DNA from: an uncultured virus (IMG/VR IMGVR_UViG_3300027708_000054)
Lineage: Duplodnaviria > Heunggongvirae > Uroviricota > Caudoviricetes
Virus record (IMG/VR): IMGVR_UViG_3300027708_000054
DNA length: 64,000 bases
Strand: one strand, 5' to 3'
The stretch's first letter is position 1, and each line of letters opens with the position of its first letter. This document shows, piece by piece, positions 8,690-13,871 of the stretch. Both the position numbers and the translations under genes were made by a program. A model generated the notes under the pieces. The model ran no database searches and was not told the origin of the DNA. It was given only the letters and a program-made list of their open reading frames with translations.

Positions 8690-8746
8690 AATTTTATTGA
8701 TTTAAAGAATAAGGGCTCTTGTTACAGAGCCCATATATTCCCCTCC

Positions 8747-8893
8747 TTAATAACCCAACTTCTCTAGTTGGTCTATATTGGCTTCTACAATATACACACC
8801 ATGTGCTATTGTACATGCAAATGCAATACTCATTGCAAATGCTAATTGTCTGAACTGATAAAAATCAGTTGGTTTTAATGTGATTGTTTTCAT
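8747..8893 (-). CDS. small hypothetical protein (48 aa, not in track)
   Basis: MKTITLKPTDF...LEKLGY*, preceded by CCTTAATAA motif and A-rich leader. Confidence 0.55.
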   Translation of the reverse strand: MKTITLKPTDFYQFRQLAFAMSIAFACTIAHGVYIVEANIDQLEKLGY

Positions 8894-8920
8894 TGTTTTA
8901 TAATTATTAAGGATTAATAC

Positions 8921-8954
8921 AAAATAAAAAAGCCTCTAGGTCAGTAGAGGCTTT
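8921..8954 (-). terminator. intrinsic terminator downstream of the tmRNA locus
   Basis: 10 bp stem AAAGCCTCTA/TAGAGGCTTT, 6 nt loop, followed by a T-run on the minus strand. Confidence 0.75.
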
Positions 8955-8958
8955 AAAT

Positions 8959-9085
8959 GATAGAACTTCACATACTTGGTCTCTGACCTATTCTATCTGG
9001 TAACACTGAGCTGTTACAGGGCAATTCATGACACTTAGCTTTGTCCAATTGCTTGTTGTTTTCCTAGTGCTAAGATCAAACAACA
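8959..9085 (-). ncRNA. candidate structured RNA 3' of tmRNA
   Basis: Four consecutive hairpins with complementary loops (CUUAGC/GCUAAG); no obvious ORF. Confidence 0.45.
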
Positions 9086-9089
9086 GATG

Positions 9090-9416
9090 TGGAGGTGGGG
9101 AGAATCGAACTCCCGTCCAAACTACTTTCGTTAATACAATTTATACAGCTTATAGGGTCAAGCTCAGCTCAACGTTTCCACCACTCTATTTAATCTAATA
9201 GAGAAATCTTTGAATGTTTAGGCTGCTACACCAAGAATAACATCCTCATTTAATAATGAGAACACTTTGTTCATGTTAGCTTCGATTTGTGCGTAATCTC
9301 CTAGAGACACAACACGAGAATTGTTTTTGCCATTTAATTAAATTCACCTTAGTTTACAGTTATCTCTCTGGCTGATTGTATTAATTATTGGTAACCTGTC
9401 AAAACCAGTCACCCCC
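9090..9416 (-). ncRNA. ssrA: tmRNA (transfer-messenger RNA)
   Basis: 5' GGGGGTGACTGGTTTTGAC; 3' GGGAG-TTCGATT-CTCCC-CACCTCC-A; 7 bp acceptor stem with G3:U wobble (Ala identity); helix 2 9375-9384 pairs with 9131-9140; internal tag ORF ending ...LGVAA*. Confidence 0.92.
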
Positions 9417-9424
9417 ATAAATAA

Positions 9425-9454
9425 ATATCCCTGCAAATATAATCTACAGGGATA
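9425..9454 (-). promoter_or_regulatory. putative tmRNA promoter (-7 box TATATTTG) inside an inverted repeat
   Basis: TATATTTG at 9434-9441 (minus); TATCCCTG/CAGGGATA inverted repeat around it. Confidence 0.5.
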
Positions 9455-9631
9455 AATAAAACAAACAAATTAACCAAATTTATTGTTCAATGTTTTGTCT
9501 AACATCAATTGTCTTCTCTGTTACAATCCCATATCTGAAATTGTATAACACTTCAACTATTAACCTCTTAGCTTTTATCTTTCTAAGAGGATTAGTTGAA
9601 CCCACTAATGTTCCTTTGTATATTCTACGTC

Positions 9632-13150: not shown

Positions 13151-13555
13151 ATGATAGTACAAAGACTAAAGAAGAATATATCTACAGATATGGAATTAGC
13201 CATCTTATACTACAGTGTATTATCTTCTATAAACACTCTTAAGTTAACAGAGAGAGAAATACAACTCATATCCTTTACAGCTATTAAAGGGAATATTACA
13301 TATGCTAATGTAAGAGAAGAATTCTGTAAGACATATAATAGTACATCTCCTTCTATTAATAACATCATCAGTAAGCTGAAGAAGGTGGGTATATTTGTTA
13401 AGGAGAATGGAAAGGTGAAGGTAAATCCAATCATCTCTATAGATTTCACTAAAGATTTAACGTTAGATATAAAACTAATACATGGAGAAGCCACAATCAA
13501 TGTCAGTGAAGGAGTGGATAATAAAGAAGATGGCAATCAACATGGTGATATCTGA
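13151..13555 (+). CDS. winged-helix DNA-binding protein
   Basis: LTEREIQLI...SINNIISKLKKVGIFVKENGKVKVNP (MarR/wHTH-like). Confidence 0.6.
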   Translation: MIVQRLKKNISTDMELAILYYSVLSSINTLKLTEREIQLISFTAIKGNITYANVREEFCKTYNSTSPSINNIISKLKKVGIFVKENGKVKVNPIISIDFTKDLTLDIKLIHGEATINVSEGVDNKEDGNQHGDI

Positions 13556-13871
13556 GAAGATAATTGATGCTGTTGTTACACATCAGTTTGATTCTGCACA
13601 TGATGCTGTAAACATACATAAGAGTGTTGAGATTTCTGGGTTTGGTAAGTTTTTATTTAACACAAAGAAAGCTATTACACATTATAATAAGTTGTTGGCT
13701 ATTGAACAAGCGTATAAGAATATGCTTCTAGATGAAAACATTACACCAGCAAAAAGAGATGCTGTTGAATTAAAATTAAAAATAATAGCAACTAGTATAT
13801 ATTCATTAAAACCAAAAACAAATGAAGATAGCGCAAGTGATAGAGGGATGGAAGAATCATCTTCTTCCTGA
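13482..13871 (+). CDS. HU/IHF-like protein
   Basis: VEISGFGKF resembles the HU/IHF GFG.F signature; IHF-like genes are known in crAss-like phages. Confidence 0.6.
   Translation: MEKPQSMSVKEWIIKKMAINMVISEKIIDAVVTHQFDSAHDAVNIHKSVEISGFGKFLFNTKKAITHYNKLLAIEQAYKNMLLDENITPAKRDAVELKLKIIATSIYSLKPKTNEDSASDRGMEESSSS

Follow-up and report, generated by a model that had tools for sequence, protein, structure and literature searches.

What occupies the short interval between the transfer-messenger RNA (tmRNA) gene of an uncultured phage and the terminator behind it, and does it serve the tmRNA or a purpose of its own? The question is raised by the virus record IMGVR_UViG_3300027708_000054, of which a stretch of 64,000 nucleotides (nt), called the window from here on, has been analyzed. 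The window is assigned to a crAss-like phage because its proteins match the Pfam families Crass_capsid (97.5 bits), CrAss_Ring_1, CrAss_Ring_2 and a P22-like portal, and freshwater and lake metagenome runs hold DNA nearly identical to it. A first-pass annotation, made from the letters alone, had placed a candidate RNA with kissing hairpin loops directly 3' of the tmRNA. What is found there, the element at window 9088..8959 on the minus strand, is a genuine structured RNA, and it is a type 1 member of a family of approximately 125–135 nt that belongs to the tmRNA/tRNA clusters of freshwater crAss-like phages. Its parts are the following:

8959..9088, minus strand: whole element, type 1, 130 nt; 5' tail AUCU, followed by hairpins A, B, C and D
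9054..9085, minus strand: hairpin A; stem 9085–9078 (UGUUGUUU) with 9061–9054 (AAACAACA), 16-nt loop 9077–9062
9021..9052, minus strand: hairpin B, outer stem; GCAAUU 9052–9047 with AAUUGC 9026–9021
Within hairpin B, minus strand: inner part; bulge G9046, GACA 9045–9042 with UGUC 9033–9030, loop 9041–9034, bulge AUG 9029–9027
9000..9017, minus strand: hairpin C; GUAACA 9017–9012, loop GCUCAG, UGUUAC 9005–9000
8959..8997, minus strand: hairpin D; outer stem GAUAGAA 8997–8991 with UUCUAUC 8965–8959, variable interior including UAGGUCAG at 8990–8983

The 162 nt that follow the tmRNA fold as these four hairpins plus the terminator, with an energy of −45.2 kcal/mol against a shuffle mean of −34.6 kcal/mol (z = −2.84; 1 of 200 shuffles folds equally well). 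The arms of hairpin A with CUUAGC in their loop (9074–9069), hairpin B with GCUAAG in its loop (9039–9034) and the string UAGGUCAG in hairpin D lie exactly where the first-pass annotation had put them. Hairpin C exists as well, although the register proposed for it (9019–8997) was off: G8997 belongs to stem D, and covariation backs 9017–9012 with 9005–9000.

Homologues of the element have been found only in related uncultured phage contigs of approximately 110 kb. An exact 23-mer led to two phage contigs of about 115 kb, L121 and L122, in which the element is 95.7% and 97.8% identical to that of the window, while the tmRNA body is 76% identical in both and the downstream gene 86% (L121) and 81% (L122). 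When that gene, which encodes 48 amino acids (aa), is used as an anchor, 47 related IMG/VR loci are recovered (L161–L207); the element lies within the fetched DNA of 33 of them, including a copy in L184 that is 81% identical, and 14 are without it. Searches anchored on the tmRNA itself were less productive: no similarity to the element occurs downstream of 120 IMG/VR loci with the exact tmRNA 3' end, and among 38 loci with the same tmRNA 5' end only the two contigs already known carry it. Nothing in the nearest virus record (G001) matches the stretch.

A covariance model of type 1 (R1), built from the window, L121, L122 and L184, gives 131–168 bits on these four source copies, as expected by construction, and weak matches in other loci (15.5–19.2 bits, E 0.012–0.12) at the equivalent place. 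Read by eye, the weakly matched loci show the same plan of four hairpins with other sequences, and are referred to here as types 2 and 3. A model of these two types (R2) finds in turn the type 1 element of L122 (16.1 bits, E 0.043). The same model finds nothing in Flavobacterium phage FpV4, in Cellulophaga phages phi14:2 and Calle_1 or in other tmRNA loci; the genome contigs scanned with a pattern of types 2 and 3 give 0 matches, and scans aimed at additional loop types return types 1–3 only. A weak R2 match elsewhere in the window (13555–13662, plus strand; 11.8 bits, E 0.69) is probably noise.

The databases of known RNAs do not hold the element. Rfam 15 returns nothing for it, either at gathering thresholds or, in a cmscan of 8800–9500, with E up to 10; the 20 matches at E up to 10 include no ribozyme family, and hammerhead, twister, twister-sister, pistol, hatchet, hairpin and VS, all of which are represented in Rfam 15, are absent from them. 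The earlier proposal of a new small non-coding RNA is supported, the element having no match in Rfam 15, against which a check had been suggested. No prior description of the motif has been found in the literature searched, which left subscription journals and the supplementary motif lists of large RNA-discovery surveys outside its scope, and the element may already be listed as an unnamed motif in supplementary catalogues.

Further evidence for the structure comes from covariation, another check that had been suggested, which extends to all four stems and to the loop-loop pair. RNAalifold, applied to 21 sequences of types 2 and 3 independently of the structure drawn here, returns the same helices A, B (outer and inner), C and D. 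Imposed on types 2 and 3, our structure is paired in 98.5% of cells, as opposed to 37–44% when the partners are slid, and six of its pairs show two-sided changes; the observed covariation score is reached by none of 500 shuffles, a control that takes no account of relatedness. MAFFT cannot align type 1 with types 2 and 3, so pairs have been counted across types by an anchored parsing script. Over 24 distinct A–B modules of all types, no cell of stem A or of the outer stem of B departs from standard pairing, and each position is filled by several types of pair. The six core pairs of hairpin A are kept in all 24 modules, pair 4 being G-C in 10 and A-U in 14, and pair 5 being C-G in 21, U-A in two and U-G in one, while pair 3 of the inner stem of B occurs as six standard pair types.

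Changes of the same kind are seen when L184 is compared with the window: two-sided changes affect five of the six outer pairs of B and three of the six pairs of hairpin C (GUAGAG/CUCUAC), with hairpin A, loop B and the outer stem of D retained. Hairpin C also has two pairs with two-sided changes in types 2 and 3, and the outer stem of D varies among relatives as GUUGAG/CUCAAC, GAUGAG/CUCAUC, GAUAAG/CUUAUC and GAUUAC/GUAAUU, its interior changing in almost every variant. The strand can be read from the pairs as well: the commonest form of the first outer pair of B (20 of the 24 modules) is G-U, which would be C-A on the other strand, and this places the RNA on the strand of the tmRNA. Unpaired positions show little conservation between type 1 and types 2 and 3 (the UGA that opens loop A and the G of the 3-nt bulge), and the B/C and C/D junctions differ between them.

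Three candidate features were rejected during this work. The 5' tail AUCUG could pair with CAGAU at the C/D junction, but such a helix is incompatible with stem D and loses strength in L303; a small open reading frame (ORF) at 8988..9083 is contradicted by the compensatory changes in the stems and by differences in length not divisible by three; and the many G-U pairs of this strand contradict a hairpin that acts at the DNA level.

The first-pass annotation had described a perfect 6 bp match between loops A and B, and this match both exceeds chance and covaries in relatives. The pair is CUUAGC (A) with GCUAAG (B) in type 1; GUCAAAU with AUUUGGC in type 2, where it takes up the whole 7-nt B loop and includes one G-U; and GCAAAU with GUUUGC in type 3, in which L199-like copies gain a seventh pair (UGCAAAU/GUUUGCA). 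The pairing segments occupy equivalent loop positions in all three types, that of loop A always coming after the conserved UGA(U/C) with which the loop opens. Duplex energies are −7.3, −6.6 and −6.3 kcal/mol within types 1, 2 and 3, as opposed to −0.1 to −4.5 kcal/mol across types, and the observed energies are matched by 0.34%, 1.6% and 2.8% of 5000 loop shuffles, respectively. Of 21 stem/loop combinations, 20 join an A loop bearing one of the three segments to a B loop of matching type, and stem A swaps G-C for A-U independently of the loop type; all copies of type 1, seven metagenome loci included, carry identical loops. In the minimum-free-energy fold of the window a helix UCUUA/UAGGA closes part of loop A and competes with the kissing pair, but it has no conserved counterpart in types 2 and 3. 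The A–B loop-loop pairing is genuine, and it is rewritten rather than lost across the types.

Having established the structure, the position of the element within its transcription unit can be considered. The neighboring features are:

9087..9416, minus strand: tmRNA gene; full-length match to Rfam RF00023, 93.5 bits, model positions 1–374
9426..9454, minus strand: terminator-like hairpin belonging to the unit before, 9 nt ahead of the 5' end of the tmRNA; bounds the tmRNA-element unit on the upstream side
8929..8954, minus strand: intrinsic terminator hairpin with U-run (10 pairs, loop of 6, T-rich tail); end of the tmRNA-element unit
8747..8893, minus strand: 48-aa gene P0001, downstream and outside the RNA; anchor used to gather related loci

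There is no intrinsic terminator between the tmRNA and the element, and since the hairpins 8954..8929 and 9454..9426 flank the two, tmRNA and element form one unit between two terminators. Together with the fold energy, the covarying stems and the strand, this agrees with the earlier view of a structured RNA placed for co-transcription with the tmRNA. Inside the upstream hairpin (9426..9454) lies a TAnnTTTG-type box (TATATTTG), which may be a Bacteroidota promoter. Contigs from lake metatranscriptomes over 8700–9500 cover parts of the tmRNA only (exact pieces 9182–9390, from a lake RNA library), and since such contigs leave the element uncovered and cannot show RNA ends they give no conclusion on its expression.

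The tmRNA gene does not encode CCA. Its 3' end reads ...CCUCC-A-C-A-U, the acceptor 3' strand (CCUCC) stopping at 9091, the discriminator A being 9090 and a lone C 9089, after which comes AUCUG. The same arrangement is found among relatives: of 48 distinct contexts, 39 have the element immediately behind the acceptor end of a tRNA-like or tmRNA gene, with the discriminator and one C in front of it. Seventeen of these follow a tRNA-like gene with CUCAAUCA, 10 follow a tmRNA end and 12 follow other ends resembling a T-arm and acceptor; the remaining contexts comprise five after an HNH-like ORF, two after a small hairpin spacer, one cut by the contig end and one unverified. Approximately 14 distinct end sequences precede the element, 12 of them tRNA-like and at least two of tmRNA (most tRNA-like ends were judged by eye, and several are confirmed by ARAGORN or Rfam). 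In L177, for example, the tRNA recognized by Rfam ends at 2280 and the element starts at 2282. A C follows other tRNA ends in these clusters too, so this C is probably C74 and the element begins without a spacer. In L121 and L122 an odd tRNA-like gene (Rfam tRNA, 34.5 bits in L122) stands between the tmRNA and the element, which comes directly after ...CUCAAUC-A-C, and in L221, L232 and L233 a further tRNA starts 4–5 nt past stem D.

The association is nevertheless not obligatory on either side. Each cluster has one element and never more; the tmRNA runs straight into a terminator in five loci that are without it (L164, L169, L170, L180 and L186), and the same tRNA-like gene lacks an element behind it in 6 of 20 distinct downstream sequences. 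In L181, on the other hand, a complete tmRNA (1383–1705) is separated by an HNH-like ORF from an element at 2303, and the 5' tail A-G/U-C-A/U-G is retained even where no tRNA precedes. The element is a distinct RNA gene module and not an appendage needed by the tmRNA; the tmRNA and the same tRNA-like gene occur without it, and it persists where no tRNA is found upstream.

The reading proposed here, which has about an even chance of being right, is that the element would be a stable non-coding RNA cut from the tmRNA/tRNA precursor by tRNA-processing enzymes. It would be transcribed as the 3' part of the tmRNA precursor, and the endonucleolytic cleavage from which the CCA-less tmRNA (a tRNA in relatives) gains its 3' end would also give the element its 5' end; this cleavage would be of the RNase Z type, at or just past the discriminator and C74. 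The 3' end would be given by the intrinsic terminator (8954..8929) or, in relatives with a downstream tRNA, by the RNase P cut of that tRNA. The RNA of approximately 130–165 nt released in this way would be kept compact by the pairing of loops A and B and would act as a separate stable non-coding RNA, so that the element would exploit tRNA processing for its own maturation instead of serving that of the tmRNA. Among the 53 ORFs of the window, which cover the part of the genome inside it, Pfam detects no RNA-processing enzyme.

Several observations weigh against this proposal. That the excised RNA is stable and acts in trans is a supposition, and exact abutment to tRNA 3' ends is also expected of a cis-acting processing device: of the theta ribozymes associated with tRNAs, 77% are located no more than 1 nt from the tRNA end (PMC10879173). 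The unity of the family is likewise exposed, since the models of type 1 and of types 2 and 3 detect each other only at the weak scores given above, and the case for a common origin of the types leans chiefly on the architecture and context that they share. As regards the kissing pair, the loops of types 2 and 3 are related, so that these types do not test it with full independence, the three loop types could have been inherited together by linkage, and L174/L256, the 21st combination, has an altered A loop with a weaker complement (−5.2 kcal/mol). Finally, in L308 (470–600, minus strand) the tmRNA end is followed by CGAAAGC and then by hairpins C and D of type 1 only, A and B being gone, which means either that at least one lineage can do without the kissing module or that this copy is decaying.

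Two other explanations can be largely set aside. The first-pass annotation had noticed an 8/8 complement between the interior of hairpin D and the terminator, and had suggested from it a switch of antitermination or attenuation, in which pairing of UAGGUCAG (8990–8983) with CUGACCUA (8944–8937, the terminator loop and first stem bases) would control read-through into the 48-aa gene. The complement is present at those positions, perfect both in the window and in L307, which has the same element and terminator, and an intrinsic terminator with its T-run does stand directly downstream. At least one perfect 8-mer complement, however, arises in 22.8% of 1000 dinucleotide shuffles of the 162 nt, and the match is not conserved: among eight distinct variants of the D interior in type 1, with the L184 terminator excluded, it is kept only by the one common to the window and L307, whereas L121 keeps 6 of the 8 pairs and L122, L302, L303/L305, L304/L306 and L308 have no complement. 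Terminator types are shuffled among relatives independently of the type of element, and the identical terminator follows type 2 (L181) and type 3 (L196) elements devoid of UAGGUCAG; no conserved alternative pairing between a sensor and the terminator has been found. Besides, the element lies approximately 1 kb from the 48-aa gene in L162, L171, L199, L201 and L184, a tRNA takes the place of the terminator behind it in L221, L232 and L233, and the conserved motif that the 48-aa gene has upstream of it is still there in loci without the element. Since the complement is at chance level and missing from most relatives, antitermination is rejected as very improbable. That the hairpins are accidents in a non-functional spacer, or remnants of decayed tRNA genes, is barely credible: the region is indeed a mosaic with decaying tRNA-like pieces, such as the insert after the L121 element, but each of the four stems shows compensatory changes, as does the loop-loop pair, no tRNA match (RF00005) falls inside 9088..8959 at E up to 10, and the element is more conserved than the genes on either side of it.

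The explanations that remain concern processing in cis and assembly between molecules. The element could be a structured 3' trailer without catalytic activity that guides or protects 3' maturation of the tmRNA or tRNA ahead of it; it might, for instance, offer the junction to an RNase, or hold off 3' exonucleases until cleavage has taken place. This is on the unlikely side, for exact abutment in 39 of the 48 contexts and the lack of CCA in the upstream genes are what such a trailer would show, yet the tmRNA and the tRNA-like gene manage without it in relatives, it stays intact behind the HNH-like ORF and behind the hairpin spacer, and a conservation above that of the tmRNA body exceeds what a passive trailer needs. 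A self-cleaving ribozyme of a new class, cutting at its own 5' edge to free the CCA-less 3' end and so doing the job of theta ribozymes without their fold, is possible but doubtful. The element shares with theta ribozymes a compact fold with pairing of the pseudoknot type, and the genomic signature is the same, in that these ribozymes start directly after the 3' ends of tRNAs without encoded CCA in phages of Bacteroidota-type hosts, crAss-like phages included (PMC10879173); the 5' tail kept where no tRNA lies upstream points in the same direction. From the outset the element could not be fitted to the HDV/theta topology, and the helices backed by covariation confirm that it does not fit, for they form four consecutive hairpins joined by loop A and loop B and do not give the nested double pseudoknot P1-P1.1-P2-P3-P4: there is no P3 hairpin inside A, the partner of loop A is inside hairpin B and not after P4, and no Rfam model of the HDV family matches. 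The minimal HDV-like ribozyme is also smaller than the 130 nt of the element. Against self-cleavage there are also the absence of ribozyme families from the 20 Rfam matches, the paucity of unpaired nucleotides conserved between type 1 and types 2 and 3, the single copy per cluster, where theta ribozymes come one per tRNA and a cis-acting ribozyme would be needed at each, and the tmRNAs and tRNA-like genes that occur without the element. A new ribozyme class locked by a covarying loop-loop helix would amount to a second, independent invention of the theta job in freshwater crAss-like phages, and this is quite unlikely.

It is also rather unlikely, and at the same time compatible with an excised non-coding RNA, that loops A and B pair between molecules to form head-to-tail dimers, rings or chains, a small-unit analogue of ROOL and GOLLD assemblies. 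Covariation is blind to whether a pairing is made within or between molecules, the A–B linker of just 1–2 nt and the fully paired 7-nt B loop of type 2 would strain an intramolecular coaxial helix, and a covarying kissing loop of ROOL that had at first been interpreted as a tertiary contact turned out to be quaternary (10.1101/2024.12.08.627333). The flanks of the loop A segment are asymmetric in all types (3–4 nt on the 5' side, 5–8 nt on the 3' side), which by our geometric estimate would be what bridging to B within one molecule needs, and there is no similarity to ROOL or GOLLD in size or sequence.

Comparison with known systems helps to place the element. The nearest kinds are the RNAC and RNAD of phage T4 and the GOLLD and ROOL RNAs, all of them phage non-coding RNAs at tRNA islands. 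ROOL measures approximately 580 nt. We know of no kissing loop described for RNAC or RNAD. Like the element, these two are small non-tRNA RNAs of unassigned job in a phage tRNA cluster, presumably made from the same precursors (PMC3014915); they differ in host phylum and phage lineage, and the likeness is one of shared context alone. GOLLD and ROOL are structured non-coding RNAs of phages and prophages, often near tRNA islands, in which covarying kissing loops are central (10.1101/2024.12.08.627333). Many GOLLD members exceed 800 nt (same source), whereas the element has 130 nt, below approximately 500 nt, and no match to their Rfam models; their kissing loops are partly intermolecular and build cages, while oligomerization is only a possibility here.

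Two further comparisons are more distant. The conserved loop segments of the element pair with each other, and they differ in this from the 3'ETS-leuZ sponge RNA. The latter is the 3' external transcribed spacer of the glyW-cysT-leuZ tRNA operon of Escherichia coli and, as is proposed for the element, a functional RNA from the 3' trailer of a tRNA-type transcript that ends at the terminator, but it is a short, Hfq-dependent sponge that acts via a single-stranded seed. It is well known that kissing modules, such as L2-L3 of the purine riboswitch and the loops of ColE1 RNA I and RNA II, use Watson-Crick pairing between loops to lock a fold or to join RNAs; unlike the purine riboswitch, the element has no enclosing P1 helix, three-way junction, ligand-pocket consensus or riboswitch match in Rfam.

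Structured non-coding RNAs in phage tRNA clusters are a recurring riddle, as T4 RNAC/RNAD, GOLLD and ROOL illustrate, and the element brings to it a size of 130 nt at which full mutational, probing and structural work is feasible, as well as three natural compensatory versions of the key tertiary contact. Its exact placement at tRNA and tmRNA 3' ends makes two matters directly testable, namely how CCA-less tRNAs and tmRNAs mature in crAss-like phages and whether phages deliver other RNAs through tRNA processing. If it proved to cleave itself or to self-assemble, the element would represent a new class of ribozyme or a natural RNA unit of assembly at minimal size. A covariance model has also been gained for annotating a conserved and so far unannotated region of uncultured freshwater crAss-like phages.

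Some observations on the neighbors of the element deserve mention in their own right. The tag frame of the window tmRNA, as read by us, ends ...NEDVILGVAA*; ARAGORN calls neither this tmRNA nor any tRNA in the window, while it does call the tmRNAs of L121, L122 and others, and Rfam calls all of them, that of the window included. In L177 and L165 the tmRNA gene contains a group I intron (Rfam Intron_gpI; L177:1479–1702, 94.8 bits, and L165:1549–1764, 94.1 bits). These genes have their 5' ends at L177:1177 and L165:1256 and a 3' exon ...AUCUCCCCACCUCCA just before the element, and the tmRNA appears to be split in the T-loop region. The HNH-like ORF of L181 (1706–2302), with counterparts in L163, L168, L192–L195, L204 and L205, has the C-terminal sequence ...DRIDSSLGYVKGNVQFIS... 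and lies exactly between the tmRNA and the element; its frame, in our reading, extends into the first bases of hairpin A, and its stop is the UGA that is conserved in loop A. The ORF resembles a homing endonuclease of the free-standing kind. Abnormal tRNA-like genes of 97–112 nt with large insertions are also found by the element (L122:1561–1672, minus strand; L176:2177–2273; L183:2185–2281; L229; L233), and ARAGORN calls several of them "tRNA-???" with anticodons of two or four bases, or Thr(agt). Such genes might encode tRNAs with introns, suppressor tRNAs or decoys.

On the downstream side, a strongly conserved motif, UUAAUCCUUAAUAA, is located at window 8894–8925 (minus strand), approximately 10–15 nt ahead of the AUG of the 48-aa gene. 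It is present at the same place in all 47 loci L161–L207, with or without the element upstream, and could serve as a promoter of the phage or as a signal for translation. Many loci carry, between element and terminator, a second recurring non-coding module of approximately 90 nt (GUGGUAUUACAUCCACA...AAACUCUC; for example L188:2354–2445, L189:2320–2420, L196 and L197), and a small hairpin, ACAUCUCCCAAGGGAGA, recurs there too; the region is a mosaic of RNA modules.

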